A stretch of DNA of 64,000 nucleotides from positions 3,989 to 67,988 of the forward strand of contig JBDRBG010000116.1 of NCBI GenBank assembly GCA_043823005.1, in the 5' to 3' direction. A model generated the notes under the pieces. It saw only the letters and a list, made by a program, of their open reading frames with translations, was not told where the DNA came from and did not search any database. The translations under genes were made by a program, and so were the position numbers. The DNA comes from Candidatus Omnitrophota bacterium. GTDB taxonomy: Bacteria; Omnitrophota; Gorgyraeia; Tantalellales; Tantalellaceae. Numbering within the stretch: the first letter of the stretch is position 1; each line of letters begins with the position of its first letter. Of the stretch, positions 41,440-62,240 are shown piece after piece.

Positions 41440-41700
41440 AATAGTGTCATTTGTTCCGTCCTGAAAAAGGTAGGATGAGAGTTGCAAGGTATTTTGCTGG
41501 AAGGGCAAGCATTCCGTGCTCAAACAATTTGCCCTCACTTGGTTCGGGCAAAAACTGCGCTCAGAACGCTCGCCCTTCCAGCAAAATAGCGGTTGGTGAA
41601 TAGGAAAAGGGGAAAATATCCCATCTGTCTTTGCGAGGAGGAACGAAGTGACGACGCGGCAATCTCGGATAAAAAAAGATAAAAAAAGTGACAACTGTTT
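41440..41700 (+). repeat. ~250-bp composite repeat R3, copy 1 (long conserved hairpin plus R1 unit plus TAGGACGATACAAG tail)
   Basis: Colinear with 59757-60010 at about 90% identity. Core hairpin CTGGAAGGGCAAGCATTCCGTGCTCAAACAATTTGCCCTCACTTGGTTCGGGCAAAAACTGCGCTCAGAACGCTCGCCCTTCCAG. Confidence 0.8.
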
Positions 41701-41732
41701 TAGGACGATACAAGCGGCAGAGTTGTTAGTAG

Positions 41733-41752
41733 GGGCGAAAAATTTTTCGCCC
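41733..41752 (+). promoter_or_regulatory. Perfect 20-nt palindrome/hairpin in the rne leader
   Basis: GGGCGAAAAATTTTTCGCCC. A second imperfect hairpin, GGGCAGACCGTATGTCCGCCC, lies ~20 nt downstream and 60-90 nt upstream of the rne ATG. Confidence 0.4.
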
Positions 41753-41820
41753 TGATAAAAATAAAAGATGTAAGGGCAGACCGTATGTCCGCCCGAAAAA
41801 GTATAAACTAAAGGAATGTA

Positions 41821-43365
41821 ATGGAACGTAAAAACATAAAGCGAGAGAAACAGGAAAAACAGGGAAAAGAAATATTGATGAATATAGGCCCTGTTGAGAA
41901 TAGGGTTGCTGTTTTGGATAACGGTGAATTAGCTGATTTTTTTATGGAACGGGAAAGCGGCGAACATTATGCCGGTACAATTTATAAAGGGCGTGTTGAT
42001 TCTATTGTTCCCGGAATAGAGGCCGCGTTTGTTAATATCGGGATGGAGAAAAATGGTTTTTTGCATGTGAGTGATGTTCTCGATAAAGGGGCAGTACTTA
42101 AGGCTATGCTTGGTGAAGACGCGGCGTCTTTTAAACCGGCAAAAAAAGAAAAAGTTCCTCAGATAAAGGATATTTTGCGGGTTGGCCAGGAAATTATGGT
42201 TCAGGTTGTAAAAGAAGCCATAGGCACTAAAGGGCCAAGGATTACCACTTACATAAGCATACCGGGGAGATTTTTAGTGCTTACTCCATATGATAAAGGG
42301 ATAGGAATATCACGGCGCATAAATGACAGGGTAGAAAGAAAAAGGATACGCGAGATTATTGATGGTATGGGGCTTTTAGGAAAGGTCGGATGTATAGTAC
42401 GTACTGTGGCTCAAAACAGTTCAGAAGAGGAGTTTCGGCGGGAACTTAAATATCTGATGAAGCTCTGGGAAAGGATAAAAGAACGGAGTGAAAAGGAAAA
42501 AGCTCCGGTTGCTGTATATGAAGAATACGGCCTTATTTTACGTTTAATCAGAGATGTGTTTAGCGAAGATATGGCGCGGCTTATTGTTGATTCTAAAGAT
42601 GAATATAACCGCATATCAAAATTTTTAAAATCATTTATGCCGTCTTTAATATCAAAAATAAAGCTGTATAACGGGCATATGTCTTTATTTCAAAAATATA
42701 ATCTGGAAAAAAAGATAGAAGAAATATTTGAAAGAAAGGTTATGTTGAAAAGCGGAGGATATCTTGTGATCGAGCCTACAGAAGGCGTTGTTGTAATAGA
42801 TATTAATACAGGGAGTTTTGTCGGGAAAAGAAGCCTTGAGGAGACGGCTTTTAAGACAAATATGGAGGCGGCCGAAGAGATACCGCGTCAACTGATTTTA
42901 AGAGATATGGGAGGTATTATTATAATAGATTTTATCGATATGGAGGTCAGGGATCATAGGGATAAAATATATAATCGGCTTCAGCAAAGACTTAAAGGTG
43001 ATAAAGCGCGTATAAGCCTGCGCGCGATGTCGCAATTCGGGGTGGTAGAGATGACACGTCAAAGAATGCGCAAAAGCCTTGAAGGCGCTTCATATGGAGA
43101 CTGTCCGTATTGCGGTGGAAAGGGTAAAATAAAAAATGTTGAGACAATAGCGATTGAAACCGCGCGCAGGATAGACCGGATGCTTTCGAATAGGGATAAG
43201 AAACGGCGGCAGATAAATATATCCGCGCATCCTAAGGTTTTAGAAACGCTTGTTTCTGATCAGGCGCGTATCTTGAGCGGTATTCAGCGGAAATATAGAT
43301 GTAAGATAGATCTTAAAGAAGATAAATCGCTTCATATCGAGGATGTTATTATTGACGATATTTAG
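41821..43365 (+). CDS. rng: Ribonuclease E/G family endoribonuclease
   Basis: S1 domain (YAGTIYKGRVDSIVPGIEAAFVNIG), RNase E/G catalytic core, Zn-link CPYC, 514 aa (RNase G-sized). Confidence 0.85.
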   Translation: MERKNIKREKQEKQGKEILMNIGPVENRVAVLDNGELADFFMERESGEHYAGTIYKGRVDSIVPGIEAAFVNIGMEKNGFLHVSDVLDKGAVLKAMLGEDAASFKPAKKEKVPQIKDILRVGQEIMVQVVKEAIGTKGPRITTYISIPGRFLVLTPYDKGIGISRRINDRVERKRIREIIDGMGLLGKVGCIVRTVAQNSSEEEFRRELKYLMKLWERIKERSEKEKAPVAVYEEYGLILRLIRDVFSEDMARLIVDSKDEYNRISKFLKSFMPSLISKIKLYNGHMSLFQKYNLEKKIEEIFERKVMLKSGGYLVIEPTEGVVVIDINTGSFVGKRSLEETAFKTNMEAAEEIPRQLILRDMGGIIIIDFIDMEVRDHRDKIYNRLQQRLKGDKARISLRAMSQFGVVEMTRQRMRKSLEGASYGDCPYCGGKGKIKNVETIAIETARRIDRMLSNRDKKRRQINISAHPKVLETLVSDQARILSGIQRKYRCKIDLKEDKSLHIEDVIIDDI

Positions 43366-43373
43366 GAGGAGGT

Positions 43374-43853
43374 ATGAAAATTATTTTCAACAATAAAGGT
43401 ATAAGTTTTATCGAAGTCATGGTTTCTGCCGTCCTGGTAGCGTTAGGAACAACAGCTTTAATATCCGCGGTTATGCAGAGCTCTGTTTTTTCGAAAAACG
43501 TGGATACAGCTTATACGTCATCCTATATAGCGGAAAGGCGATTAGAAGTGCTTAGAAGTATTGATTTTGATCTTTTATCAGAAACCGCTGAAACAGAAGC
43601 GCGCGTAGCCGCTGACGGTACAATTGATTCAGCGGGTGAATATTTTAGAACAACGGGTATAGAAACAGGGTATGACAGTAATGTACATCTTGTTAGAGCA
43701 AAGATAACAGTAAAAAGGGTCAAAACAGGTATGGATGGCAGCCTTCTTAAAGGGGCTGGCGGCCAGCTAGAGCTTGCCGCTCAGCCGGTAATAATGGAAA
43801 CATTATTTTCAGATGTTGATCACAATGCGGGATCAGGAATAGTTGAAGAATAG
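43374..43853 (+). CDS. Minor pilin/pseudopilin (PilV-like), cassette 1
   Basis: MKIIFNNKG then ISFIEVMVSAVLVALGTTALI prepilin-type N-methylation site. 159 aa. GGAGGAGG SD. Starts 8 nt after rne. Confidence 0.75.
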   Translation: MKIIFNNKGISFIEVMVSAVLVALGTTALISAVMQSSVFSKNVDTAYTSSYIAERRLEVLRSIDFDLLSETAETEARVAADGTIDSAGEYFRTTGIETGYDSNVHLVRAKITVKRVKTGMDGSLLKGAGGQLELAAQPVIMETLFSDVDHNAGSGIVEE

Positions 43854-43969
43854 GCTTCGCAATGTCTTTGCGCGTACACGCAACTGACTAGTACCCTGAC
43901 AACGTTAAAATGAAGAATAATTTTGTCAGTTATCTTACTCTGTCATTCTCGCGAACAGACTGTATTATA

Positions 43970-44110
43970 ACGTCTTTGAGAGCCCATGAAATGGGCGAAG
44001 CAATCTCAAATAGCAATAAAAATATAAACTTTATGGGTAATCCCTATTATTATCGAGATTGCCGCGGTCGCTCTTGCTCCCTCGCAAAGACGAAATTTGA
44101 ATTAAGATAC
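43970..44110. repeat. R1 palindromic element (paralog of 26069-26215)
   Basis: Same sequence with a few substitutions. Creates the spurious ORF 43910..44134. Confidence 0.8.
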
Positions 44111-44214
44111 AGCCTAGAAAACGGGAATCTATAGAATGGTACTTTTCATTTTTAGATTGTCGAGGTGCTAGTGTCATGGCAGCAGTAAACAAAGAAAACG
44201 AATCAGGGGTAGTA

Positions 44215-46401
44215 ATGAATAAAAAAAAGATATTCGCGAACATTAAAGGCTTCAGCCTTATGGAAGTAATGTTTGTGGCTGTTGTTTCTTTAATGGTAAT
44301 AGGCGCTATAGTTTCTGTGTGGACATATACATATAAAACATGGACCGGGGAGAATGTTCATACGCAATTAAGGGTTCAGATAATGGAAGCTTTAGAAACC
44401 ATAAAACGGGATATGCGTCTTTCCAGCGCTACTTATATGTCATTTTATCCTGAAAATAGTGATGTATATACCGCGGCAAGTCTTCCTGTAGCTGAAACTG
44501 ACGCGAATGGACTGCTTACTCTTGATAGTAATGGGAAAATAAGCTGGGCTAAGACTGTTATATATCATCTTTATTCCGAAAGCGACGGTACTCAAACTTT
44601 GCGCAGGACTGTTTATGATCCGCGGGACAATACAATGACAGAGGATGAACGGTATTCGCAGTTAGGAAGTGTTGTAACCGGAGGTACAGGCGGGAGTTCT
44701 TCGACTACGGATACGGAGTTTTTGAAAAACGTGGATGTTTTTGAAATATCCTCATCAGCCGCTATGATAGATTTTTATGATGATTCTAGTACTCCTGTTC
44801 GTGTGGGGAAGGTTATTTTAGGATGGGTTCAGCTTGATTCAGGAAACCATACTGTACGGATGGAAGTAACCGGTAAAAATGACAATTCTACCGGATATGA
44901 TTTTGGAATAGACAGTCTGATCTTAGACCCGGGCGCGAGTGTCCGCGAGTTTGAATATTATGATTCTTCGTATGCTCCGGGCGGTATGTTGTCGCTTAGC
45001 GGCGGATCAGTAAGTTTGCAAAACAGTTCAGTCTGGGGAAATAATAATTATCTCGAATTCATCGCCGGAGGTGAAGGGTCATACATGCAAGTAACTGATG
45101 CTTATGACCTTTGGAGAGAGTCATCTTTTGAGAGTGTTGCTCTTGATAATACAGGAACAACAGGCGATGAAATGCGTATTGAACTGGATATTCCGGAAGA
45201 AGACGAAGAAGGTTTGATTTCTTGGTTTGTTCATGCCGAGGCCAATGATCTTGAAGCAGCAGGCAGAGACGGTGCTTTTCCGGCTGTTGAGCCTTTGACC
45301 ATACGCACTATTGTTACTGCTGATAATGTTGGAAAGGAAGGTGCTTTGGTACAAGTTAAATTTTCATCTTCCGTAAATAATGATCTGGTAATAGCTAATG
45401 CTTATATAACAAAACGGGACGGGATAACCGGGTCCAACGGTTTGGCAAACCAGGCTCCGGGGAGTTTAACTGTTGAGGAATATCATCGGCATCAACAGCT
45501 TTTTTTTAAAGCCGCTGATGGTACTATTAATTCCGGGATTACAATAAGCGCTGATTCTTTTGTTTGGAGCGAATGGACGGCTTTTCCTTTAAGAACAGAC
45601 AGTGATTATTTTATAACTTTTCATGTCTCGGATATTTCCACTGTTGACTGCAGATATTGGGAAGATTCTGTCGGGACTGTGCACACATATTATGTGACAG
45701 GAAGTACTTCTGATCTGGCAGGCACTCCTGATTGGACAGCAGAAACCGTAAATCCTTCGGCTAATATTTTTGTTACATCAGCGATATCAGTCGCAGATAC
45801 CGAAGGTACTGTTGAATCCCAGGCATTTGATACGACTCTTTCCGCTCCTAATTATAATAAGATCAAATGGTCGGAAAACAAACCTCTAGGTACAACTATT
45901 TTTTTTAAGACAAGATCATCAGCGGATCAATACATGACAGGAGCTACGGATTGGGATCTTATTGCCGGTTCAAGTTCTAATCCGCATTCGTTAGCTATGG
46001 GCAGCGGACGATATGTTCAATTCTTAGCGGAACTTTCTACTGAGCTTTTTTGGAAAAGCGCGGCCAGTCAGTTAAGTTATGCTGATTATATAGAAGCACA
46101 GGTTGATTTTCCTTCGGACGATCAATTTCCCAGAGACAGTACGGGCGACTTTTTAGTAACTGATTATAATGTTCCATGGATAGACGATGTAGAGATCGAT
46201 TGGCCCGGATTAAACAGGATGGCCGCTATTGAGGCTTATATTGCTAAAAAAGACAGTTATGGACAGGCAAAAGTTACTGTTGACGGGAAAGACCTTGTTA
46301 AAACCCTTAGTGTTCATATAAACGTATCAGATGAAGTAAGCGGCAGGACATTGGAAGAAGATCATTGTTTGGAAATAGAACCAAGGAATACAGGAAAATG
46401 A
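44215..46401 (+). CDS. Large (~730 aa) prepilin-leader protein (PilW-like N-terminus plus large beta-rich C-terminal region), cassette 1
   Basis: Leader MNKKKIFANIKG then FSLMEVMFVAVVSLMVIGAIV (Glu+5). The rest has no recognisable domain. Roughly 55-60% identical to the 48569..50758 paralog. Confidence 0.7.
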   Translation: MNKKKIFANIKGFSLMEVMFVAVVSLMVIGAIVSVWTYTYKTWTGENVHTQLRVQIMEALETIKRDMRLSSATYMSFYPENSDVYTAASLPVAETDANGLLTLDSNGKISWAKTVIYHLYSESDGTQTLRRTVYDPRDNTMTEDERYSQLGSVVTGGTGGSSSTTDTEFLKNVDVFEISSSAAMIDFYDDSSTPVRVGKVILGWVQLDSGNHTVRMEVTGKNDNSTGYDFGIDSLILDPGASVREFEYYDSSYAPGGMLSLSGGSVSLQNSSVWGNNNYLEFIAGGEGSYMQVTDAYDLWRESSFESVALDNTGTTGDEMRIELDIPEEDEEGLISWFVHAEANDLEAAGRDGAFPAVEPLTIRTIVTADNVGKEGALVQVKFSSSVNNDLVIANAYITKRDGITGSNGLANQAPGSLTVEEYHRHQQLFFKAADGTINSGITISADSFVWSEWTAFPLRTDSDYFITFHVSDISTVDCRYWEDSVGTVHTYYVTGSTSDLAGTPDWTAETVNPSANIFVTSAISVADTEGTVESQAFDTTLSAPNYNKIKWSENKPLGTTIFFKTRSSADQYMTGATDWDLIAGSSSNPHSLAMGSGRYVQFLAELSTELFWKSAASQLSYADYIEAQVDFPSDDQFPRDSTGDFLVTDYNVPWIDDVEIDWPGLNRMAAIEAYIAKKDSYGQAKVTVDGKDLVKTLSVHINVSDEVSGRTLEEDHCLEIEPRNTGK

Positions 46402-47594
46402 AGAAAACATTTTTAAAAAATTATGACGGATTATCCGGATCCGGGATAAAGGGAAAAGAAAAGGGTGTAGTTCTGGTAATAGTCATGTTTTTTATGTCGC
46501 TTATGGTATTGAGCGCGGTCTCGCTTTCAAATATGATTCAGCAGGATATAAGGCTTGTAGAACATGTAAGAGAAAGAACACAGGCCAAGTTTATAGCGGA
46601 AGCCGGGATTAATCACGCGTTAGCTAAGATACAAGCCGATGGTTTTGATTCGCGTCAGAATTTTAACGGAGCATTGGATATCGGAAGCTATACAGTTACG
46701 CATAGTACTTTTTCTGTCAGCGGGCTGGCCAGGCATCGTATTACTTCGGTTGGTACAATCTCCGGTGTTTCTGAGACAGCAATCGTTGAGGTTAAGGATT
46801 CTGTTCCTACGGCTTTATATTGTTTTTCAGGCGCCGGCAATGATATCAACATTAAAGTTCACACACATATAGAAAATGCTGTTATTAACGGGAACATGCA
46901 TGCTAATAATAATTTATCTCTTACGGCGAATAAGATGCATTCGAAATTGACTGTTACCGGAGATGTTTCAGCAACAGGTATAGTCGTGGAAGGAACACTA
47001 CATAACCAGTCAGATAAGCAGGATAATAATGTGTATATAAACGGTTTTGCTAATGATCAGGCGGTTGTTACTGAAGGCAGTGCGAATATAACTTTCCCCG
47101 TATTTGATTATACCGCTTATAAACAGGCGGCTCAGGATGACGGATTGTATTACAGTACTGATAAAACATTTTCAGGTACGCCTTTAAGCCCGGATAACGG
47201 TATTGTATATGTGGATGGAGATGTTATTATAACAGGTGAGGTTACACTTTATGGCGGACTTATCGCTGAGACAATAACAATAGCGCCAAACAGCACTCTT
47301 TATCAAAAAAAGACTGCTGATGCGGATAATCGAAATGTTATTATTGCCAAAAATGGAGATATCTCAATCGCGGGATATCTTGATGCTGAAGAGGCTCTGA
47401 TATACGCGTCTCAGGATATTTTATCATCTGCCGGGGGTAGCTTGGAACCTCATGTTATTGTCAATGGAACAATGCTTGCGGCAAGGGACATTACTATGTG
47501 GAACACAAAAACTCATATTATCTACAATCATGTTCAAATGAGTCCCGAAGATATGGAAGCCGGAGGGTTTGAAGTGGTAAGCTGGAATAAGTAA
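46398..47594 (+). CDS. PilX/GspK-like minor pilin with C-terminal beta-helix-like repeats, cassette 1
   Basis: N-terminal GVVLVIVMFFMSLMVLSAVSLSNMIQQDIRLVEHVRERTQAKFIAEAGINHA resembles the PilX_N/GspK N-terminal segment. C-terminal Gly/Asn-rich repeats (GDVSATG, GDVIITGEV). ATGA overlap with the previous gene. Confidence 0.65.
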   Translation: MKKTFLKNYDGLSGSGIKGKEKGVVLVIVMFFMSLMVLSAVSLSNMIQQDIRLVEHVRERTQAKFIAEAGINHALAKIQADGFDSRQNFNGALDIGSYTVTHSTFSVSGLARHRITSVGTISGVSETAIVEVKDSVPTALYCFSGAGNDINIKVHTHIENAVINGNMHANNNLSLTANKMHSKLTVTGDVSATGIVVEGTLHNQSDKQDNNVYINGFANDQAVVTEGSANITFPVFDYTAYKQAAQDDGLYYSTDKTFSGTPLSPDNGIVYVDGDVIITGEVTLYGGLIAETITIAPNSTLYQKKTADADNRNVIIAKNGDISIAGYLDAEEALIYASQDILSSAGGSLEPHVIVNGTMLAARDITMWNTKTHIIYNHVQMSPEDMEAGGFEVVSWNK

Positions 47595-48493: not shown

Positions 48494-48568
48494 TTTTTCA
48501 ACAGTAGTTAGTTGGTTTTAGTTCGTAATTGGTGTGGACAAACAACGAATTTGAATTGGGAGCTTTTT

Positions 48569-50758
48569 ATGAATATAAAATTTTTACGGAACATAAAAGG
48601 AACAACCCTTGTTGAGACTATGTTTGTGGTGATAATATACGCTATGATCATAGTAGCTATTTTATCAATATGGACATATACTTCAAGATCATGGAATACG
48701 GAAAATGAACGAACGTGTTTAAGAATAGATCTTCTTAAAGCTTTGGAAACTTTAAAAGAAGATCTTAGAGTATCAAGCCTTACTTATATGAGTTTTTATC
48801 CTGAAGGAGGAGAGCCGTATACAGCATTTAGTTTGCCTGTGCCAAAGATAGATGCAAGCGGTTTTTTGGTCCTTAATGCAAATGACGAAATAGTTTGGGA
48901 CAAAACTGTAGTCTATCATATTTATTCGGAAACAGACGAAACTCAGACTTTAAGACGCACGGTTTTGAGCCCAAGGAACAATGCTCTTTCAGATTTGCAA
49001 AGAAAACAGCAATTAGAGTGTATAGTGGCCGGAGGTACCGGAGGAGGAACAGCTGTTACAGATGAAGAGTTTCTTAAAAATCTAGAAGTTTTTGATATTT
49101 CTTCTTTATCTTCAATAATAGATTTTTATTATAATGCCGAGAGTCCGGTAAAAGCCGGAAAGATCATGTTCGGACGCGTTAAATTGGATCCCGGGGATCA
49201 TATTATACGGTTTGAAGTGACTGGAAAAAATACCGATTCTTTGGGGTATGACCTGGGTATTGACAGTATATCGATTGAACCGAGCGGTAGTACAAGGGAA
49301 ATGGAATATTACAACTCGGGTTTTGCTCCTTCGGGTATTCTTTCTTTAAGCGGAGGAAGTGTTCAAAGAATAAACGATCCTTTATGGGGAAATAATAATT
49401 ATCTGAAATTTACTGCTTCAGCAATAGGAAGCTATTTAGAGATAACCGATTATTATGACTTATGGCGAGAATCTTCGTTTGATAATGCCATTTTAAATAA
49501 CTCAGAGACAACAGGCGAAGAAGTTTGTGTTGAAATAGATTTTCCCGAAGGTGATCGGGAAGAAAGGATCACCTGGTATGCTTTTTCAGAGGCAGAGGAT
49601 GATGTTATGGAAGGCAATAATGGGGCTATTTTAGGAGGGATAATACCGCCTGTTACTATACGTACGGTTATTACGCGGGACAATATCGATGTTGAAGGAG
49701 ATATGGTCAGTGTTAAAATTTTGGCTTCGGATAATAACGATCTGGTTATAGACAGGGCATATATAACAAAAAGGGACGGTATTAGCGGGGCTAATGGTTT
49801 GGCTAATCAGGATCCCGGAGTTTTAAGTGTGGAAGAATATCACAGGCATCAACAGTTGTTTTTTGAAGACGGTGACGGGGAAATAAAAGAAGGGGTCACT
49901 GTGCCTGCAGGACAAGAAGTCTGGTGCGAGTGGACTGCTTTTCCGTTAAGGATCGATAGCGATTATTTTGTTACGATTTATTTGTCTGATGCCGTTTCTT
50001 TGGAAGGTAAATACTGGTCGGGAACAGAAGGAGAGGAGCGTAGTTATTATGTAGCAGGCGCGGATAATACAATTGCCGGAACTCCTGATTGGAGCGGGAA
50101 GGGCCCGGTTGCTTTAAAGGATATATATCTAGTCGGGAAGATTGATCTTAAATCCGGCAAAGGTACTGTTGAGTCTCAGATATTTGACTCAACATTAAGC
50201 GCGCCTTCATATGACAAGATAAAGTGGTCGGAAAATAAACCCGCAGGCACAAATATTACATTAAAAGCGCGTTCTTCCGGTAATGAATATATGCAAGATG
50301 CCGCGGATTGGGATTCAATAACAGGTTCAGCAGTAAATCCTCATACGATTAGTATCGGTAATGGCCGATATGTCCAGTTTTTTGCGGAATTATCAGCTAA
50401 TCTTTTTTGGATAAATTCCAGCGGAACAGGGCAACTTAGTTATGAAGCTTATATAAGGGATCAAATAACCCGTCCTGTATATGAATTTCCACAGAATAGC
50501 GGAGAATTTTTAGTTACTTCATATTTTTCTCCGAGCATAGATGATGTTGAGATAAACTGGCCCGGACAGAGTAGGATCTGCGCTATTACAGGATATATAG
50601 CTAAAAAAAAGGACTATGGACAGGCAAAGATCACGGTTGACGGCAGTGAACTTATACAGACCTTAAATATTCATGTGAAAGTATCAAAAGAAATAAGCGG
50701 AATGATGGTTGAAGAAGAAAACTATGTGGAAATAGAGCCAAAGAACACGGGAAAATAA
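48569..50758 (+). CDS. Large (~730 aa) prepilin-leader protein, cassette 2
   Basis: Leader MNIKFLRNIKG then TTLVETMFVVIIYAMIIVAIL. Colinear paralog of 44215..46401 (shared blocks TYMSFYPE, TQTLRRTV, YITKRDGI, EEYHRHQQLFF, KIKWSENKP). Confidence 0.7.
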   Translation: MNIKFLRNIKGTTLVETMFVVIIYAMIIVAILSIWTYTSRSWNTENERTCLRIDLLKALETLKEDLRVSSLTYMSFYPEGGEPYTAFSLPVPKIDASGFLVLNANDEIVWDKTVVYHIYSETDETQTLRRTVLSPRNNALSDLQRKQQLECIVAGGTGGGTAVTDEEFLKNLEVFDISSLSSIIDFYYNAESPVKAGKIMFGRVKLDPGDHIIRFEVTGKNTDSLGYDLGIDSISIEPSGSTREMEYYNSGFAPSGILSLSGGSVQRINDPLWGNNNYLKFTASAIGSYLEITDYYDLWRESSFDNAILNNSETTGEEVCVEIDFPEGDREERITWYAFSEAEDDVMEGNNGAILGGIIPPVTIRTVITRDNIDVEGDMVSVKILASDNNDLVIDRAYITKRDGISGANGLANQDPGVLSVEEYHRHQQLFFEDGDGEIKEGVTVPAGQEVWCEWTAFPLRIDSDYFVTIYLSDAVSLEGKYWSGTEGEERSYYVAGADNTIAGTPDWSGKGPVALKDIYLVGKIDLKSGKGTVESQIFDSTLSAPSYDKIKWSENKPAGTNITLKARSSGNEYMQDAADWDSITGSAVNPHTISIGNGRYVQFFAELSANLFWINSSGTGQLSYEAYIRDQITRPVYEFPQNSGEFLVTSYFSPSIDDVEINWPGQSRICAITGYIAKKKDYGQAKITVDGSELIQTLNIHVKVSKEISGMMVEEENYVEIEPKNTGK

Positions 50759-50759
50759 A

Positions 50760-51971
50760 ATGATGTCAAAGAATCCGAAAAATAAAAGAACTGAAAAGCG
50801 TCAAAAAGGAACCATACTTATTTTGGTCATGGCGTTTTTGGCGTTAATGGCTTTGACTACGATCTCTTTAGCGACTTTAGTTCAGCAGGATGTTAAACTT
50901 ATCCAGTGTGTCAGAGATACAGAGCAAGCCCGTTTTATGGCAGAGGCGGGCATAAACCACGCTATTGCAAATCTTAAAAAAAATAATTTTAGTTCGCGTT
51001 CAGCTTTTAGCGGGACAATGGATACCGGCAGTTATTCTGTGGAATACGGGGCATTGAACTCAAGCGGAAGATTAATAGTGTCGTCTACCGGGACGGCTTC
51101 AGGAGTGTCAAAGACTGTTTGTATGGAAATAAGCAGTAATATGCCTACAGCTTTGTATTATTTCGCGGGCGCCGGAAATGATATTTATATTAATTCTATA
51201 TTATCTCATTCGGTTATAAACGGGGATATTCATGCCAATGGGAGCGTATTTTTAAAATCAAATCGTTTCTTGTCAAGTTTGACTATTGCAGGAGATGTTT
51301 CTGCGTCCGGGACTGTCAAAGAAGGGACCAGGTATAATACAGGAGATAATGATAACTGGGATAATAAGGTGACAATAAATGAAAACGCTAATGATACAGC
51401 TGAAGTATATGAAGGAGAAGAACAAATAACGTTTCCTGTTTTTGATTATCAAAAATATAAAGACGCGGCAATAGCGTCAGGGGATTATTATGCTTCGGAT
51501 CAGGAGTTTGACAATAGTACTCTTTCTCCTGCTAATGGAATAGTTTATGTTGACGGAGATGTGACGTTTTTTGGGACGTGTACATTAAACGGAGGTATAA
51601 TTGCGAAAAATATATATGTCGGAGGATTTGAAATGGTTAAAGTTCTCTGGTGGTGGGTATCCGTATATAAATATGGAAGATTGGATCAACAGAAGACTCA
51701 AAACAACAGAAACGTAATTATTTCTAAAGAGGGAAATATTTTAATATACGGCCCTTTAAACGTCCAGGAAGCATTGGTTTACTCGTCAGGAGATATTGAA
51801 ACTATGAACGCAGGCGCGGATGTAAATATTAATGGTATTATATTGGCAGGCACGGATATATCAATGTGGAATTTTGTTTGTCAATTAGATTATAATTATA
51901 TTTATTTAGAACCGGAGGATATGCAGGGCGGAGGAGGCGATGATACCTTTAGTATTGTAGGTTGGACATAA
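50760..51971 (+). CDS. PilX/GspK-like minor pilin, cassette 2
   Basis: KGTILILVMAFLALMALTTISLATLVQQDVKLIQCVRDTEQARFMAEAGINHA. Paralog of 46398..47594. Confidence 0.65.
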   Translation: MMSKNPKNKRTEKRQKGTILILVMAFLALMALTTISLATLVQQDVKLIQCVRDTEQARFMAEAGINHAIANLKKNNFSSRSAFSGTMDTGSYSVEYGALNSSGRLIVSSTGTASGVSKTVCMEISSNMPTALYYFAGAGNDIYINSILSHSVINGDIHANGSVFLKSNRFLSSLTIAGDVSASGTVKEGTRYNTGDNDNWDNKVTINENANDTAEVYEGEEQITFPVFDYQKYKDAAIASGDYYASDQEFDNSTLSPANGIVYVDGDVTFFGTCTLNGGIIAKNIYVGGFEMVKVLWWWVSVYKYGRLDQQKTQNNRNVIISKEGNILIYGPLNVQEALVYSSGDIETMNAGADVNINGIILAGTDISMWNFVCQLDYNYIYLEPEDMQGGGGDDTFSIVGWT

Positions 51972-54954: not shown

Positions 54955-55152
54955 TTGTTGGTGTCGTTAGTCAGTTAGTCGTTAGTCGGGAGTCGTTAGT
55001 CAGAGATTGCTTCGCTTCGCTCGCAAAGACGGACTTTCGTCATTGCGAGGCCTGAGGGAGAGGCGGATCCGCATATTAAAGCGGAAAGGCCGCGGCAATC
55101 TCAGTGAAAGTGATCGATTATAAGGAAATTATAGATAAAGGGGAACTAAGAT

Positions 55153-56412
55153 ATGGATTATAGGAAAATAATGAAAGAAATTACAAATAAGGCAAAAAAA
55201 GCGACAGCTAGTCTTAGCGCAATGTCTGCTGAAGATAAAAATAGGGTTTTAAGGGAAATGGCAGATGAGCTCAGAGCGCAAAGTGAAAATCTTAAAAAAG
55301 CTAACAAGCTGGATCTCGTCCGGGCAGAAAAAGACGGTAAAAGCAAAGCATTTATTGACAGGTTAACTTTGGATGACAATAGGATCAATGCTATGGTAAA
55401 AATGATGGAGGATGTGGCTGCGCTTAAAGATCCAATAGGCACAGTTATTGAAGACATAAAAAGGCCCAATGGGCTGGAAATACGGAAAGTAAGAGTGCCT
55501 ATAGGAGTTATAGGTATAATTTACGAGGCCAGGCCCAATGTAACCGCGGATAGTGTCGCGTTGTGTTTTAAAGCCGGCAATTCTGTTATTTTAAGGGGCG
55601 GTACAGGCGCGATAAACTCGAACAAAGCGATAGCGGACATTTTAAAAAAAGCAGCGGATAAAAACGGAGTTGTGGACGGAGCGTTTGTTCTTTTGGAGGA
55701 TACTTCCAGAGAGCTTGTAGACGCGATGTTGGAATCATCGGAAGGTATGGATCTTATCATGCCCCGCGGAGGTGAATCTCTGATAAGGGAAGTAGTGTCA
55801 AAAAGTAAAGTGCCTGTTATTAAGCATTATAAAGGTATATGTCATGTTTACGTCGATGATAATGCGGATTTGGATATGGCGCAAAAGATTTGTTTTAATG
55901 CTAAAGTTCAGCGTCCCGGTGTATGTAATGCTATGGAAACAATGCTTGTGCACGAAGCAATAGCTGAAAAATTTTTGCCAAGCATCGCGGATAAGTTGAC
56001 AAAAAAAGGTGTTCGTTTAAAAGGCTGTAAACGGACTCTTCAAGTATTGGGAAACATTGCTGAATCAGCTGATGATAAGGACTATGCTACAGAATGGCTG
56101 GATCTTGTGCTTAATGTAAGAGTTGTGGATTCTATGGCGCAAGCGATTGCGCATATAGCGAAATTCGGATCTCATCATTCAGACGCGATTGTGACGCAAC
56201 AAGATACTAAAGCGGAAGAATTTGTCAAAATAGTTGATTCTGCCGCGGTATATGTAAATGCGTCAACTCGTTTTACTGACGGAGGAGAATTTGGAAAAGG
56301 CGCTGAGATAGGGATATCAACAGATAAGATTCATGCGCGCGGTCCTATGGGGCTTGAAGAACTGACTTCGTATAAGTATATTGTGTTTGGGAAAGGACAG
56401 ATCAGGGAGTAA
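55153..56412 (+). CDS. proA: Gamma-glutamyl phosphate reductase
   Basis: 419 aa aldehyde-dehydrogenase fold; C-terminal GPMGLEELTSYKY is typical of ProA. Confidence 0.88.
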   Translation: MDYRKIMKEITNKAKKATASLSAMSAEDKNRVLREMADELRAQSENLKKANKLDLVRAEKDGKSKAFIDRLTLDDNRINAMVKMMEDVAALKDPIGTVIEDIKRPNGLEIRKVRVPIGVIGIIYEARPNVTADSVALCFKAGNSVILRGGTGAINSNKAIADILKKAADKNGVVDGAFVLLEDTSRELVDAMLESSEGMDLIMPRGGESLIREVVSKSKVPVIKHYKGICHVYVDDNADLDMAQKICFNAKVQRPGVCNAMETMLVHEAIAEKFLPSIADKLTKKGVRLKGCKRTLQVLGNIAESADDKDYATEWLDLVLNVRVVDSMAQAIAHIAKFGSHHSDAIVTQQDTKAEEFVKIVDSAAVYVNASTRFTDGGEFGKGAEIGISTDKIHARGPMGLEELTSYKYIVFGKGQIRE

Positions 56413-56518
56413 CTAGTCGTTAGTCGTTTGTCGTTAGTCGTTAGTTGGTCGTTTGTAGTTACAATGGAGCGGTCTCCCGACCGCGAACAAAAAGAAGTAA
56501 AAAGGAAAAAGAGAAACA

Positions 56519-56567
56519 CTAAACTCTAAACTCTAAACTCTAAACTCTAAACTCTAAATCCTAAATA
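56519..56567. repeat. Heptanucleotide microsatellite (CTAAACT)5 plus 2 degenerate units
   Basis: CTAAACTCTAAACTCTAAACTCTAAACTCTAAACTCTAAATCCTAAAT in the proA-nadD spacer. Confidence 0.8.
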
Positions 56568-56790
56568 AAACTAAAGGACCAAAACTAAAAATATAAAACT
56601 AGGAAAGAGATGCTTTTTTAGATTTGGAGCTTTGAGGATTAGGATTTTTTTTATTTCGTCATTCAGGTTGTGCCGCAATTCAAATTCTGTCTTTGCGCGG
56701 GAGCAAGAACGACCGTGGCAATCTCAATAAAAGGAAAAGGGAAGAGGAAAGGGATAACGGGCAACCGTCAACTAAACAACCGGGGGTAAA

Positions 56791-57363
56791 ATGAAAATCG
56801 GGCTTTTAGGAGGAACTTTTAATCCGATTCATGCCGGGCATTTGATCTTAGCTCAGGAGTGCTGGTACAGATTAAAACTCGATAAAGTTATATTTATTCC
56901 GGCATATGCTCCGCCTCATAAACAAGTAGAAGGGGACATTTCCGTTCCTGACAGACTTAACATGCTGCGGTTGGCATTACACGGGGATACAAGATTTGAA
57001 ATATCTACTTATGAGATAGATCAAAACAAGATAGTTTATTCAGTAGATACGATACGGTTTTTTATAGATAAATATGGAGATTCTGCTGAGATTTTTTTTC
57101 TGACAGGGTCGGATTCCAGCCAGGATCTTTTTGCGTGGAAAAACATAGAGAAGATTCTGGATCTTACAACTTTTATAATAGCTGTACGTCCGGGATGGGA
57201 AAAACAGAGTTTGTATGAACAGAAAGTAAAGAGGACAGAGATGCCGCTTATTGATATATCATCCAGTATGATCAGGGATCGCATAAGAAAATGTGAGCCG
57301 ATAGATTATTTTGTTCCGTCAACAGTTGTTCAATATATAAGAGATAAGGGGTTGTACCGGTAG
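56791..57363 (+). CDS. nadD: Nicotinate-nucleotide adenylyltransferase
   Basis: MKIGLLGGTFNPIHAGHL ((H/T)xGH motif) and an ISSSMIRDR-type SxT motif. Confidence 0.88.
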   Translation: MKIGLLGGTFNPIHAGHLILAQECWYRLKLDKVIFIPAYAPPHKQVEGDISVPDRLNMLRLALHGDTRFEISTYEIDQNKIVYSVDTIRFFIDKYGDSAEIFFLTGSDSSQDLFAWKNIEKILDLTTFIIAVRPGWEKQSLYEQKVKRTEMPLIDISSSMIRDRIRKCEPIDYFVPSTVVQYIRDKGLYR

Positions 57364-57544
57364 GATATAAGCGCTAAATCCCGGGGGCTATATATTTTTT
57401 TGTCCTATTGAGGAGTCTAATTTTCTTGACTTTTAGGTTTGGTATGATAAACTTACTTGCGTAAATAGAAGGCGCTAGAAAGAAAGCTAACCCATTAGAT
57501 TGTGCCTGGGTTAGAAAAATTGTAAAAAAATCAGGGAGGCTCTT

Positions 57545-57688
57545 ATGGCAGAAGCATATTGCGTGAAATGTAAGGCGAAGAAAGAAATGAAGGACGCAAA
57601 AGAAGTTACTATGAAGAACGGAAGAAAAGCATTGAAAGGTTGTTGTCCTGATTGTGGTACCGGGATGTATCGCATAATGGGTAAATAA
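57545..57688 (+). CDS. Small zinc-ribbon protein (DUF5679-like), absent from the ORF track because it is under 60 aa
   Basis: MAEAYCVKCKAKKEMKDAKEVTMKNGRKALKGCCPDCGTGMYRIMGK: CxxC...CxxC. GGGAGG SD 6 nt upstream. Sits between nadD and rsfS on the coding strand. Confidence 0.6.
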   Translation: MAEAYCVKCKAKKEMKDAKEVTMKNGRKALKGCCPDCGTGMYRIMGK

Positions 57689-57720
57689 GCTATTTTTGGT
57701 CAAAGGGAAGATATACAACT

Positions 57721-58101
57721 TTGGATAAAGCAAAATTAATAGCACAATGTGCCGCGGAGAAAAAGGGTGATAATATTGTCCTTATGGACATGCGTAAAGC
57801 AGCAACAGAATATGAATGGTTTGTTGTTGTAAGCGCAGGCTCGACTCGGCGTATGAATGCGATAGTAAAAGCAACGGAAAGAACACTTTCAAAAAACAAG
57901 ATGTCTTTTTTGAGAGTTGAGGGTAAGAATAATCCTCATTGGATATTGATGGATTGTAATGACGTAATAGTACATGTTTTTCACGAAGAAATACGGGAAT
58001 TTTATGGACTGGAAAGACTCTGGTCCGATGTTCCCATAGAAAGATTTAACAACAAATGCTTGGAAAAGACCTCACAAAAAAAATATCAACGATCCTCTTA
58101 A
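57721..58101 (+). CDS. rsfS: Ribosomal silencing factor RsfS (Iojap)
   Basis: DKKGDNIVLMDMRK...VVSAGSTRRMNAI...HWILMDCNDVIVHVFHEEIREFYGLERLW, a typical RsfS sequence. TTG start. Confidence 0.82.
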   Translation: MDKAKLIAQCAAEKKGDNIVLMDMRKAATEYEWFVVVSAGSTRRMNAIVKATERTLSKNKMSFLRVEGKNNPHWILMDCNDVIVHVFHEEIREFYGLERLWSDVPIERFNNKCLEKTSQKKYQRSS

Positions 58102-59756
58102 AAGCCTGTAAATCGTATTTTAAAAAAAATCTACCCGAGGTAATGTTTCCGGAAAATATTGATCCGGGGTTGCAGATTACTCGAGACCAGGCACATGGCG
58201 ATCTTTCTTCAAATATCGCTATGTGCCTGGCTTCAAGCGCGCGCAAGTCACCGTTAAACCTGGGAACCGGGATTGTATCGGTTTTGGAGGAGCTTGTAGC
58301 AGTCTCTGAGTTAAAGCCGTTAATAAGCGGGATAGAGCTTAAAGGCGGTTTTATAAATTTCAGTCTGTCTGAAATCTATTATCACACGCTTCTTTTTGAT
58401 GCTTTTTCTCAAAAAGAAAAATTCGGAAGATCCGATGACGGACAGGGAGAACATATAAATCTTGAGTTTGTAAGCGCTAATCCTACCGGCCCGCTTACTG
58501 TTGCTCATGGAAGACAGGCCGCTATAGGTGACGCTCTTTCCCGAATACTTCGGTTTAGCGGATATACTGTTACTAATGAGTATTATCTTAATGATATAGG
58601 ACGTCAGATCCGTTTGCTCGGAGAATCCGTAAGGATAAGGTATAGAAATCTTTTTGATTTGAATGATCCTATGCCTGAAGATGGTTATATGGGAGAATAT
58701 ATTGTCGATATAGCCGAAGAAATAAAGAAGCAAAAAGGGGAGAGTCTACTGGCGCAAGAGACTCTAAAGCCCGGATCCGGGTTTTTTCAGCAGTATGCCA
58801 TTGATTATATGATGAAGGATATCAAAAAGGATCTGGCTGATTTCGGGGTAAATTTTGATGTTTGGACCTCACAGGGGCGTTTGGAGAAAAGGCGAGAGGT
58901 AGAAAAAGTTTTAGGCGTACTGGAGAAAAAAGGGTGGCTTTATGACTGTGATGGAGCTAAATGGTTTGCATCAACACGGTTAGGGGATGACAAGGACAGA
59001 GTGGTAATAAAGAGCGATGGTTCTTACACATATTTAGCTCCGGATATCGCGTACCATTTTGATAAATATCGAAGGAAATATACGAAATTGATTGATCTCT
59101 TAGGGCCGGATCACCACGGGTATATAAAAAGGATGAAAGCCGCGGTAAAGGCTTTAGGTCATGAGGCAGGTTCGCTTAATATTTTGATTGTTCAACTTGT
59201 TTCGCTTTTGCGTAATGGCCGGACTTTGTCCATGTCAACCAGGAGAGGTGAATTTATCAGTCTTAGAGAGATTATGGATGAATTGGGAAAGGATGTAACA
59301 AGGTTTTTCTTTCTTTCCCGCAGGCTTGACAGTCATTTGGATTTTGATATTGAACTTGCCAAAAAAGAATCATCAGATAATCCTGTTTTTTATATTCAAT
59401 ACGCGCATGCAAGGATATGTAGTATAAAAAAATACAGCGGAAAAGATTTTAACCGTTTATTTTCCGGAAAAGCCAGGCTGAATCTTTTGTCTAGCCGTCA
59501 GGAGAAACAGCTTATGCGTAAGTTAAGTGAATTTCCTATTATGGTTAAAGCTAGCGCAGATGCGCTTGAACCTAACAGGATCATTGTTTATCTTAACGAA
59601 TTGGCGCGTAGTTTTCATTCATTTTATACTGAGTGTCGGGTAGTTTCTGAAGATCAGGTACTGTCTGAAGCAAGACTATTTTTAGTCGAATGTGTGAGAA
59701 TAGTGCTTGCTAATGGTTTGGGTCTTTTAAATATTACTTTTCCTGAGAAAATGTAA
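58056..59756 (+). CDS. argS: Arginyl-tRNA synthetase
   Basis: Add-1 N-domain, HIGH-region (PTGPLTVAHGR), MSTRRG, DALR anticodon-binding C-terminus ending ...PEKM. Confidence 0.88.
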   Translation: MLGKDLTKKISTILLKACKSYFKKNLPEVMFPENIDPGLQITRDQAHGDLSSNIAMCLASSARKSPLNLGTGIVSVLEELVAVSELKPLISGIELKGGFINFSLSEIYYHTLLFDAFSQKEKFGRSDDGQGEHINLEFVSANPTGPLTVAHGRQAAIGDALSRILRFSGYTVTNEYYLNDIGRQIRLLGESVRIRYRNLFDLNDPMPEDGYMGEYIVDIAEEIKKQKGESLLAQETLKPGSGFFQQYAIDYMMKDIKKDLADFGVNFDVWTSQGRLEKRREVEKVLGVLEKKGWLYDCDGAKWFASTRLGDDKDRVVIKSDGSYTYLAPDIAYHFDKYRRKYTKLIDLLGPDHHGYIKRMKAAVKALGHEAGSLNILIVQLVSLLRNGRTLSMSTRRGEFISLREIMDELGKDVTRFFFLSRRLDSHLDFDIELAKKESSDNPVFYIQYAHARICSIKKYSGKDFNRLFSGKARLNLLSSRQEKQLMRKLSEFPIMVKASADALEPNRIIVYLNELARSFHSFYTECRVVSEDQVLSEARLFLVECVRIVLANGLGLLNITFPEKM

Positions 59757-60010
59757 ATAGTGAATGGTGTCTTGTCCTGACATAGCTTGGGGGAGAAAAA
59801 GCAAAGTATTTTGCTGGAATGGCAAGCATTCCGTGCTCAAACAATTTGCCCTCACTTGGTTCGGGCAAAAACTGCGCTCAGAACGCTCGCCCGTCCAGCA
59901 AAATAGAGGTTGGTGAATAGGAAAAAGGGAAAACATCCCATCCGTCTTTGCGAGGAGGAACGAAGTGACGACGCGGCAATCTCGGATAAAAATAGATAAA
60001 AAAACTGTCA
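59757..60010 (+). repeat. R3 composite repeat, copy 2 (between argS and mfd)
   Basis: See copy 1; same module order. Confidence 0.8.
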
Positions 60011-60138
60011 ACTTTTTCAGGACGAAACGTAGCTATGATCGTCCTATTTACTATTCACCATTCACTAAGAAATTCCACACCTGTTTCCTGAGCAGTGAGT
60101 TTTTTCAAGCGGACAGCAGGTAAATTTTATAACAGACT

Positions 60139-62046
60139 ATGTTTAATTCCATTAAGTTTTATGTGGACGAACAAGCGGATCCGGATGAAATAATCGCGGC
60201 CTTGGATGATTTCGGATATTCCAGATGTTCAAAAGTATCTGTTTGCGGAGATTACAGCCTAATCGGAGAAACTCTTATAATCTATCCGGTTACTTTTGAA
60301 TATCCTGTCAGGATAGACATTTTTGACGCTAAGATCCAATCGATAAAAAGTATTGATGTTGTATCTTTCAAGACTATTATGCCGCATAAAGGCGTAATGA
60401 TTTTGCCTGTTGGGGCATTAAGGCGAAAAAAGGTAAAAAAGCATCTTGAAGGTATTGAAGAGCAGCCGATCGACTCTTTTGTAGATATAGAACCCGGTGA
60501 TTTTACCGTTCACATAGATTATGGTATCGGTAAATATTTAGGTATGCAGAGGATGCGACGCAACAGCGGGTTAAAAGATTATTTTGTAATAGAATATAAA
60601 GACGGCGATAAACTTTATGTAGATAGTAAGGATCTCGATAAACTTCAAAGATATATATCATTTCACAGAAGGCCTCCGACTCTTAATAAGCTAAGAGGTA
60701 AAAAATGGCATCAGACTAAAGTAAAAGCTTTTAAGGGCGCCGCTTCCGCGGCAGAAGAAATACTTTCAATGCAGGCAAAAAGAGAAAGATGCAAAGGGTT
60801 TGCTTTTAGCCGGGATGCGGAATGGCAGAAACAAGTAGAAGAAGAATTTCCATATCGGGAGACTCCTGATCAGCTGAGAGCTACACAGGAAGTTAAAAAC
60901 GATATGGAGAAATTAAAACCTATGGACAGACTTTTGTGCGGAGATGTCGGTTATGGAAAAACCGAAGTTGCTTTAAGAGCCGCTTTTAAGGCGGTTATGG
61001 ACGGTAAACAGGTTGCTTTTTTAGTGCCTACGACGATTCTTGCCGAACAGCATACCAATACTTTTCGCAATCGATTGAAATCTTTTCCCGTAAAGATAGA
61101 AATGCTTAATCGGTTTAGGACGCAGAGCGAACAAAAGCGTGTGCTTGCTGATATTAAGAACGGTAAGGTGGATATAGTTATCGGAACTCACCGGATTCTT
61201 TCCGGTGATGTTGAATTTAAGGATCTGGGGCTTTTGATAATAGATGAAGAACAGCGTTTCGGGGTTAAACATAAAGAAAAAATCAAAAAAATGAGGATAA
61301 ATGTAGATGTGCTTACGCTTACAGCTACACCGATTCCCCGGACTTTATATTTGGCGCTGATGGGGGGTAAGGATATTTCCATAATAGAAACGCCTCCGCT
61401 ACAAAGACTTCCGGTTAAAACAGAAATTATTGAGTATGACAGAGAAGAAATACGTGACGCGATTAAGCAAGAAATAGAACGAGGCGGACAGGTATATTAT
61501 GTCCACAATAGAGTAGAAACAATAGACAAAATAGCTGATGAAGTAAAAAAACTGGTTCCTGAAGCGGATCTCATAGTAGGGCACGGACAAATGAGTTCAA
61601 AGGTTTTGGAAAAAAACATGATAAAGTTTATAAAAGGAGAGACAGATATATTAGTCTGTACTACAATAATCGAGTCAGGAATAGATATTCCTAACGCGAA
61701 TACAATAATAATAGATAATGCCGATAAATTTGGGTTGGCCGGGTTGTATCAACTTAGAGGAAGAATCGGAAGGTTTGATAAAGAGGCGTATGCTTATTTA
61801 GTTGTAAGGGATTTTTCTATTCTTACTCATGAGATTCAAAAAAGATTGCATGCAATAAAAAAATACCAGGAATTAGGATCCGGGCTTAAAATCGCGATGC
61901 GGGATCTGGAAATGAGAGGCGCGGGAAATCTTCTTGGGTTTGAGCAGAGCGGGTTTATAGATCAAATAGGGTTTGATCTATATTGCAGGCTTTTAAAAAT
62001 GGAGATACAAAGACAGCGTAATTCGTCTTTGCGAGGAGCCCCATAG
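60139..62046 (+). CDS. mfd: Mfd-like transcription-repair coupling factor, short form (635 aa; lacks N-terminal D1a/D1b/D3 and C-terminal D7 equivalents)
   Basis: UvrB-homology segment (LIGETLIIYP...PVRIDIFDAKIQSIKSID), RNAP-interacting-like segment, SF2 motifs GDVGYGKTEV, DEEQRFG, TATPIPRT, QLRGRIGR and TRG-like LEMRGAGNLLGFEQSG. In-frame stop immediately upstream; the stop codon lies inside a repeat unit. Confidence 0.75.
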   Translation: MFNSIKFYVDEQADPDEIIAALDDFGYSRCSKVSVCGDYSLIGETLIIYPVTFEYPVRIDIFDAKIQSIKSIDVVSFKTIMPHKGVMILPVGALRRKKVKKHLEGIEEQPIDSFVDIEPGDFTVHIDYGIGKYLGMQRMRRNSGLKDYFVIEYKDGDKLYVDSKDLDKLQRYISFHRRPPTLNKLRGKKWHQTKVKAFKGAASAAEEILSMQAKRERCKGFAFSRDAEWQKQVEEEFPYRETPDQLRATQEVKNDMEKLKPMDRLLCGDVGYGKTEVALRAAFKAVMDGKQVAFLVPTTILAEQHTNTFRNRLKSFPVKIEMLNRFRTQSEQKRVLADIKNGKVDIVIGTHRILSGDVEFKDLGLLIIDEEQRFGVKHKEKIKKMRINVDVLTLTATPIPRTLYLALMGGKDISIIETPPLQRLPVKTEIIEYDREEIRDAIKQEIERGGQVYYVHNRVETIDKIADEVKKLVPEADLIVGHGQMSSKVLEKNMIKFIKGETDILVCTTIIESGIDIPNANTIIIDNADKFGLAGLYQLRGRIGRFDKEAYAYLVVRDFSILTHEIQKRLHAIKKYQELGSGLKIAMRDLEMRGAGNLLGFEQSGFIDQIGFDLYCRLLKMEIQRQRNSSLRGAP

Positions 62047-62240
62047 GCTGACGCGGCAATCTGTTTGGTGAATAGCGTTTTGTTCTAAAAATAGACAGTA
62101 GAGAAAAAGATATAACGGCGCACCTGGAAGGGCAAACATTCCGTGCTCAAACAGTTTGCCTTCACTTGGTTCAGGCAAAAACTGCGCTCAGAACGCTTGC
62201 CCTTCCAGATGAAAAGTGTAAACTTTTTTAGGACGACACG
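62047..62240 (+). repeat. R3 composite repeat, copy 3 (between mfd and the PPIase gene; modules permuted)
   Basis: Same hairpin core with a compensatory change (TTTGCCT...AGGCAAA versus TTTGCCC...GGGCAAA in copy 1). The R1 unit precedes it and overlaps the mfd stop. Confidence 0.75.

Follow-up and report, generated by a model that had tools for sequence, protein, structure and literature searches.

R3, a putative family of small structured palindromic repeats in the intergenic spacers of conserved operons in an Omnitrophota bacterium

R3 is an intergenic palindromic element that occurs three times in a 64-kb stretch of DNA (64,000 nucleotides; referred to below as the window) from a metagenome-assembled genome of a Candidatus Omnitrophota bacterium (contig JBDRBG010000116.1 of assembly GCA_043823005.1). 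The best reading of our analyses of this window and of related loci is that R3 represents a new family of dispersed palindromic repeats, small in size and structured, of the same general kind as the repetitive extragenic palindromic (REP) elements and REPINs, the enterobacterial repetitive intergenic consensus (ERIC) elements and the Correia elements. On this reading, R3 is specific to some members of the Omnitrophota. Much is known about the small palindromic repeats of Proteobacteria, Neisseria and pneumococci, whereas for this uncultured phylum there is essentially no description of such repeats, and a search of the literature on Omnitrophota repeats, or on the R1 motif that accompanies R3, found nothing relevant. 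The element was first noticed in an earlier examination of the letters of the window without database searches (the sequence-only reading).

Identification and structure of the R3 element

Repeat detection has identified an 85-nucleotide (nt) core at positions 41497–41581, 59814–59898 (98% identical) and 62124–62208 (94% identical), all within 21 kb of one another. The three cores are 92–98% identical between copies (2–7 substitutions apart), and no such match is expected by chance; a 61-nt degenerate pattern likewise finds exactly 3 sites in the window and 0 in 100 shuffles. All of the copies are intergenic and each of them folds as a single long hairpin, viz. at 41490–41588 (arms 41490–41522 and 41556–41588), 59807–59905 (loop 59852–59862) and 62121–62211 (loop 62162–62172), each assigned to the minus strand, the strand given being the one that pairs fully. 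Its parts are an outer stem of ~23–27 bp, a middle box interrupted by two single mismatches, one internal loop, an inner stem of 7 bp and a loop of 11 nt. The inner stem of copy 1, TTTGCCC/GGGCAAA, occupies 41528–41534 and 41546–41552 and encloses the loop TCACTTGGTTC at 41535–41545, while the base of the stem in the window reads TATTTTGCTGG...CCAGCAAAATA. The sequence-only reading had described three copies with this conserved hairpin, inner stem and loop, and the description holds. A K-turn reading of the internal loop was rejected by inspection, the required GA being absent on the non-bulged strand. R3 is judged to be non-coding because the open reading frame (ORF) that runs across the element has no homologue among 5.8 billion proteins and because the insertions and deletions that separate it from a homologue described below are not multiples of three.

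Copy 3 differs from copy 1 by five transitions (62136, 62154, 62161, 62173 and 62198), which leave all of the minus-strand pairs intact, and two of these, C>T at 62161 and G>A at 62173, together preserve a pair of the inner stem, as had been proposed earlier. In simulations with 5 random transitions, the probability of no broken pair together with at least one double change was ~0.024. The substitutions in copy 2, at 59820 and 59893, disrupt two adjacent pairs and give a 2x2 internal loop. The compensatory change seen in the three window copies alone is weak evidence for selection on structure.

Two covariance models, one of them run with filters off, found no further or degenerate copies of R3 in the 64 kb; the dozens of copies with lost pairing that had been named as a sign of decay are not present there. 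R3 has no match in Rfam at gathering thresholds, and permissive searches returned only noise (E>2). No similarity was found by blastn in the plasmid and phage collections, and a search of viral_contigs gave 0 matches. A 21-mer search of metagenome_contigs also gave 0 matches and the loop pattern 1 partial match (in locus L006, see below), while the 5 matches to an R3 19-mer in genome_contigs were all due to chance.

A homologue in another genus and covariation of the stem

A sliding local alignment over all of the fetched loci of other genomes has identified one R3 homologue, L015:924–1024, which occupies the TPR|pilM spacer on a metagenome contig of 237 kb; a model derived solely from the three copies of the window gives it 55 bits (E ~1e-9). 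The genome that carries it is not the closest relative of the window genome (RNase G 65.6% identical, vs. 69.5% for L014). The stem of this copy, whose base reads TTAAGG...CCTTAA, overlaps the preceding gene at its stop codon, and the sequence conservation between it and the window copies ends at the ends of the stem, the flanks being unrelated. Covariance-model scans found no further member in ~290 kb of relatives.

A structure-aware alignment of the four sequences, which was made by hand, fitted to the structure and checked against the real sequences, and which covers two independent lineages only, places 97.2% of the cells of the minus strand in standard pairs (plus strand, 87.4%). Nine pairs are changed on both sides, as compared with 2.7 +/- 1.4 in shuffles (0/500 reach 9) and 0–2 in controls with slid partners, and there are two paired 2-bp insertions besides. 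Identical columns make up 18/21 of the unpaired and 50/69 of the paired positions; the central boxes and the loops are conserved, whereas the outer stem shows compensated variation. Hence, as judged from this alignment, the R3 helix is maintained by covarying substitutions and the loops and internal loops keep their sequence. The earlier claim of selection on structure is supported because a homologue from another genus was found; the argument that it had drawn from the three window copies is weak, with copy 2 breaking two pairs.

One further sequence, L006:5575–5700 (Ga0302250_1000055, GC 46.5%, downstream of a tRNA-Ser), contains a 25-nt inner hairpin, TTTGCCCTCACTTGGTTCGGGCAAA, identical to that of copies 1 and 2, together with a 13-nt match (TTTGTTCCGTCCT) to the left frame module (module A) of copy 1, and lacks the outer stem. 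This sequence may be related to R3 through rearrangement.

Strand asymmetry of the hairpin

The non-Watson–Crick pairs of the R3 stem all read G·U on the minus strand, the plus strand having A·C in their place, with 7 distinct sites of this kind and 0 of the opposite kind (two-sided binomial ~0.016, if the sites are independent). As RNA, the minus strand folds 11–18 kcal/mol better than the plus strand in all four copies, viz. −64.1 (z −10.1) against −51.6 (z −7.4) kcal/mol for copy 1, −56.4 (z −8.5) against −40.7 (z −4.2) for copy 2, −55.5 (z −6.9) against −37.7 (z −3.4) for copy 3 and −60.7 against −49.2 for L015. As DNA, the corresponding values are −34.5 and −29.3 kcal/mol for copy 1, −27.2 and −18.1 for copy 3 and −34.0 and −26.6 for L015. 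The sequence-only reading had assumed the gene-sense strand, and it is the opposite strand that pairs better.

A mutational bias was considered as the cause of this asymmetry and rejected. It is unlikely because the R3 core, in which C exceeds G on the plus strand, runs against the local G>C skew (+0.14 to +0.30), which would favour G·T on the plus strand, and because the other palindromes of the window, viz. the arms of the A/tail frame that surrounds R3 and the 99-nt D15 hairpins, show no such asymmetry. The preference of R3 for the strand antisense to the genes is suggestive, not conclusive. From the skew and the orientation of the genes, the favoured strand would be the one antisense to the operons and the template of the leading strand, and not the strand exposed by transcription or by lagging-strand synthesis. 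The leading-strand template is not known to be the strand used by single-strand transposases of the IS200/IS605 type.

The alternative that survives best, and to which we assign a rather low probability, is that R3 is an antisense structured RNA, either a small RNA of minus sense or part of an antisense transcript, in which the helix is selected and the apical and 1x5 internal loops bind a partner. The better folding of the minus strand in four of four copies, its one-sided wobble sites and more complete pairing, the opposition of the asymmetry to the local skew and its absence from other palindromes of the window, and the stronger conservation of the loops than of the stems would all be in keeping with such an RNA. 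However, the copies share no promoter-like or terminator-like signal on the minus strand, the similarity of the window copies to L015 does not extend beyond the stem, and the asymmetry, observed across two independent lineages, does not single out RNA because the minus strand is also more stable as single-stranded DNA. Searches on either strand found no sigma-70-like promoter shared by the copies or belonging to R3, bearing in mind that the promoter rules of Omnitrophota may differ, and no terminator consisting of a hairpin and a U tract; the U tract follows on neither strand, and the only feature picked up by the scan is a weak sub-hairpin of 5 bp within R3.

It is also unlikely that R3 is a mobile functional module whose active form is opposite in sense to the operons, either as an antisense RNA or as a folded single DNA strand. 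In such a module, the conserved apical loop of 11–12 nt and the 1x5 internal loop would serve as recognition sites for a dedicated protein, e.g., a recombinase or nuclease that uses R3 as its substrate or guide. If the asymmetry holds in a larger sample, R3 would provide an entry point to a new structured RNA or to a repeat-copying enzyme of the phylum.

R3-bearing junctions and their counterparts in relatives

Copies 1, 2 and 3 of R3 lie in the DUF2344|RNase E/G, ArgRS|Mfd-like and Mfd-like|peptidyl-prolyl isomerase (PPIase) junctions, respectively, and the flanking genes are all on the plus strand, which agrees with the earlier description of gaps between co-directional genes. The gene order around these junctions (pilM...secretin-DUF2344-rne and rsfS-argS-mfd-PPIase-surA) is kept in relatives, and our comparison set consists of 9 loci of relatives with conserved gene order. 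The DUF2344/rne junction measures −4, −4, 6, 42 and 98 nt in the relatives and 383 nt in the window; the argS/mfd junction 26, 39, 40, 140, 177 and 494 nt in the relatives and 382 nt in the window; and the mfd/PPIase junction −4, 94, 94, 100 and 195 nt in the relatives and 232 nt in the window. The R3 hairpin is absent from the orthologous junctions in all 9 of these loci, and this distribution across the sampled relatives marks R3 as dispersed. The housekeeping junctions of the window have been expanded from ~0–100 nt to 230–380 nt by at least three repeat families, and the operons are undisrupted.

The suggestion that R3 is a regulatory leader specific to a gene is not supported by these comparisons, because the corresponding junctions of the relatives lack the hairpin and are nearly all much shorter, and R3 itself has no Rfam match. 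Unrelated long palindromes are present at the argS|mfd and mfd|PPIase junctions elsewhere in Omnitrophota (L012:7238–7731 and 9621–9815; L007:11730–11813), and since they occur at two of the same junctions, the R3-bearing junctions are simply permissive sites. The last of these palindromes, in the argS|mfd spacer of Makaraimicrobium, was considered as an R3 homologue and rejected, 174/2000 shuffles reaching its local alignment score and the covariance model giving 14.9 bits (E 0.64). In L012 the mfd-like gene is broken into three ORFs.

The location of R3 bears on a further alternative, in which the hairpin acts in cis in the sense strand of the operon mRNA and, closed by pairing of module A with the tail, forms a processing site or a block against 3' exonucleases by which the stability of neighbouring cistrons relative to one another is set, in the manner of REP, ERIC and Correia elements. 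All of the copies are found between co-directional genes of conserved operons in one orientation, the L015 stem reaches into the upstream stop codon, and the plus-strand RNA still folds with −38 to −52 kcal/mol, while copies 1 and 3 show the A/tail helix in their minimum free energy and centroid structures; ERIC repeats are moreover reported to affect the decay of mRNA by way of RNase E (PMC3184786). However, each copy carries 4 A·C mismatches on the sense strand, at sites that have alternated between mismatch and pair in evolution, which is unexpected if the sense RNA is selected, and the relatives manage without R3 at the same junctions, some of them with overlapping genes. We hold a sense-strand function of this kind to be improbable.

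The mosaic of R3, the A/tail frame and R1

Each copy of R3 sits within imperfect inverted repeats of 16–19 nt that are 76–81% complementary, module A being the left arm and the tail the right arm. In the frame of copy 1, module A (41451–41469, 19 nt) is 79% complementary to 41695–41713, the right arm in the tail at 41684–41715. The frame of copy 2 consists of module A at 59769–59785 (17 nt), which is 76% complementary to 60012–60028 in the tail at 60001–60032, and that of copy 3 of module A at 62076–62091 (16 nt), which is 81% complementary to 62225–62240 in the tail at 62212–62243. A...tail frames are also present without the R3 hairpin at 986–1171, with other cargo, and at 36149–36293, with an R1-type doublet, and a tail with no recognisable left arm is found at 23736–23763; all six tails and these frames are on the plus strand. 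The tails of copies 1, 2 and 3 end 106, 106 and 35–68 nt ahead of the next start codon, which does not bear out the earlier view that the tail ends near the ribosome-binding site of the next gene. A role of the tail as a donor of a promoter or ribosome-binding site was rejected, no consensus promoter having been found and only the frame at 986–1171 adjoining a start codon.

R1 is a third and far more abundant family, with ~20–25 units on both strands of the window. Its pattern is GTC[T/A]TTGCGAGG ... GCGGCAATCTC, and the units are often arranged as inverted doublets that another inverted repeat (CAGNCTGTGT...) flanks. Examples are located at 2228–2267, 4314–4347, 5625–5753, 13202–13264, 20434–20470, 26152–26188, 33352–33388, 44055–44091 and 56689–56725. 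The unit GTCTTTGCGAGG...GCGGCAATCTC is found within the frame, downstream of the hairpin and on the plus strand, in copy 1 (41627–41666) and in copy 2 (59944–59983). An R1 variant (62025–62063, plus strand) lies upstream of copy 3, outside its frame, where it overlaps the end of mfd, so that the earlier statement that each copy carries an R1 unit applies in this form to copies 1 and 2. The Mfd-like ORF ends in this R1 unit (62020–62046, …NSSLRGAP*), from which its last 7 codons (SSLRGAP) and its stop codon derive. Insertion of R1 has replaced the native last codons and stop of the gene, because the Mfd-like proteins of relatives end in …LLKEEI(x)nK*, without R1. For the annotation of the window, the R3 mosaic explains both the long gaps and the repeat-derived C-terminus of the Mfd-like protein. 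The R1 family is probably older and wider than R3, because a related doublet is present in Makaraimicrobium (L007:18700–18818).

The hairpin loop TCACTTGGTTC is complementary in 10/11 positions to the interior of the adjacent R1 unit on the same strand (GAACGAAGTGA; 41535–41545 vs. 41641–41651 and 59852–59862 vs. 59958–59968). About 0.01 such matches are expected so near a hairpin; the observation was made post hoc, and copies 1 and 2 represent one event. No R1 unit is found near the L015 homologue.

The mosaic leads to the question of whether the whole composite is the mobile unit, viz. a classical MITE (miniature inverted-repeat transposable element) of 145–265 bp that extends from module A to the tail and is moved by a cut-and-paste transposase binding its terminal inverted repeats, with the hairpin as mere cargo. 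The inverted repeats at the three copies and at two further frames are consistent with this, and the size and the lack of an ORF match the definition of a MITE (PMC3184786). However, the frames have no flanking direct repeats and are far more diverged (52–81%; left frame 52–64% and tail 76–81% between copies) than the core, and they are absent from L015 and from the other relatives. Since the frames are diverged and lacking at these loci, the core would spread or be conserved independently of the frame, and we regard a classical MITE as distinctly unlikely. The earlier suggestion of a modular MITE survives in its modular part, there being a frame with other cargo and a varying order of R1; as a clean MITE it fails on the missing target-site duplication, the unequal extents of the copies and the conservation of the centre rather than the ends. 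The R3 core is thus one module of a mosaic with the A/tail frame and R1.

Chance similarity or an assembly artefact, which might be suspected in a metagenome-assembled genome, is hardly credible, given that zero chance matches are expected, that the copies are 2–7 substitutions apart in unique syntenic flanks and that an independent homologue exists in another metagenome. Truncation of the neighbouring genes by the elements was rejected, the DUF2344 (~100 aa) and Mfd-like (~630 aa) proteins having lengths that are normal for Omnitrophota.

Comparison with known repeat families and interpretation

ERIC and Correia elements come closest to R3 in size, in lying in transcribed intergenic DNA and in the effect that they may have on mRNA. 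They are imperfect palindromes of ~100–150 bp in the transcribed intergenic regions of operons, form long RNA hairpins and may change mRNA decay (PMC3184786), and the R3 composite, like them, has terminal inverted repeats. R3 differs from them in lacking a TA or other target-site duplication, in its single orientation (4/4, against both orientations for ERIC and Correia), in a hairpin that is separable from the inverted-repeat frame, and in its occurrence in an unrelated phylum with no sequence similarity.

R3 also resembles the REP/REPIN elements with RAYT (Y1 HUH) transposases (PMC3116915, PMC3337134) in being an extragenic hairpin of ~90–110 nt that is predicted in single-stranded DNA or RNA; both show compensatory changes that keep the stem, and both are non-coding, dispersed and clustered with other repeats. 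In REPINs, the two inverted REP ends are highly conserved and the spacer at the centre is less so (PMC3116915). A classical MITE requires a target-site duplication and uniform ends (PMC3184786); the R3 composite shares with MITEs the terminal inverted repeats that are present at all three copies and at two further frames, but it has no consistent target-site duplication and its copies differ in shared extent. The region may further be compared with mosaics of other bacteria. The BIMEs of Escherichia coli and the BOX elements of Streptococcus pneumoniae are intergenic mosaics of a few short modules in variable order and number. The R3 region is likewise a mosaic of short modules; however, its modules are unrelated, and one of them, a hairpin of 90 nt, is conserved from genus to genus. 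Integron attC sites are imperfect hairpins found in one orientation after stop codons, of which one strand is folded and active and in which the conserved unpaired bases matter. R3 is similar to attC in its single favoured folded strand, its uniform orientation and its conserved unpaired bases, but the base of its stem has no RYYYAAC/GTTRRRY core sites, its neighbours are syntenic housekeeping genes rather than cassettes, and no integrase is present. BOX elements are mentioned in the same review of small repeats as the ERIC elements (PMC3184786).

In the mechanism that we propose, R3 would be a self-contained structured palindromic repeat of ~90–100 nt that has been copied into the intercistronic spacers of conserved housekeeping operons, where it would have formed mosaics with the A/tail frame and R1. 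Its propagation would be due to an enzyme that acts in trans and recognises the single strand in its folded form, and the same recognition would maintain the structure of R3; R3 would be passively co-transcribed with the operons, and any effect on the processing or stability of the mRNA would be a side effect. We see about an even chance that R3 is a selfish or neutral dispersed repeat maintained in this way through recognition of its fold.

Several of our results weigh against such a dispersed repeat. REPIN/REP-RAYT systems are present in tens to hundreds of copies per genome, with a single-copy RAYT gene flanked by repeats; the copy number of R3 looks low (3 in the 64 kb of the window and 1 in ~290 kb of relatives), no RAYT is known for its host genome, and neither a transposase nor a RAYT was found among the 26 window proteins scanned. 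R3 has a conserved centre and a covarying outer stem, which is the reverse of the arrangement in REPINs, and the orientation is identical in 4/4 copies, albeit in a small sample. The ends of the copies are non-uniform, copies 1 and 2 sharing 228 nt at 94% (R1 and tail included) and copy 3 sharing the core only. No consistent flanking direct repeats or target-site duplication were found at the frames, whose boundaries are unsharp, so that short duplications may exist. Lastly, the wobble sites favour the template of the leading strand, which fits a function as RNA at least as well.

Genomic context and other features of the window

The genes of the 64-kb window are on the plus strand throughout, and it contains no tRNA genes. 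The 26 real window proteins that were scanned with Pfam are housekeeping in character (viz. mur, ddl, ftsA, IleRS, mreBC, PBP2, rodA, secretin, DUF2344, RNase E/G, ArgRS, Mfd-like helicase and PPIase), and the scan left out 11–13 large ORFs at ~26.2–39.1 and 43.4–58.1 kb, for which the gene order is the same as in the loci of relatives. The window ArgRS is 100% identical to a protein of a Candidatus Omnitrophota metagenome-assembled genome and ~70% identical to the proteins of its next relatives. The GC content of the window genome is 37–41%, as compared with 51–53% in the relatives that share its gene order (L007, L014–L016 and L018); that of the R3 core is 54%, like the relatives and unlike its own host.

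Two small G+C-rich hairpins are located between the tail of copy 1 and the start of the RNase E/G gene, at 41733–41752 (GGGCGAAAAATTTTTCGCCC) and 41774–41795 (GGGCAGACCGTATGTCCGCCC), and a second kind of intergenic hairpin with 7-nt periodic motifs (GTTGACA/GTTGACG...) is present at 23619–23717 and 36040–36138. Heptamer tracts (AGTCGTT, GTGAATA) are found right after stop codons at 949–976, 21777–21840, 54972–55021 and 56397–56459, and relatives contain analogous tracts of other sequences (GTAAACA, GGTGTAA/CCTGAAA; L015:5830–5930 and 6296–6320). A two-gene unit (741/748 aa and 409/403 aa) is tandemly duplicated at 44176–47594 and 48512–51971, with ~71–72% DNA identity over the aligned parts. 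Genes for radical SAM (Radical_SAM_N2) and DUF2344/TIGR03936 proteins are usually adjacent or fused in other bacteria; in the window, the Radical_SAM_N2 gene (21852–23612) and the DUF2344/TIGR03936 'radical SAM-associated' gene (41138–41437) are separated by 17.5 kb.

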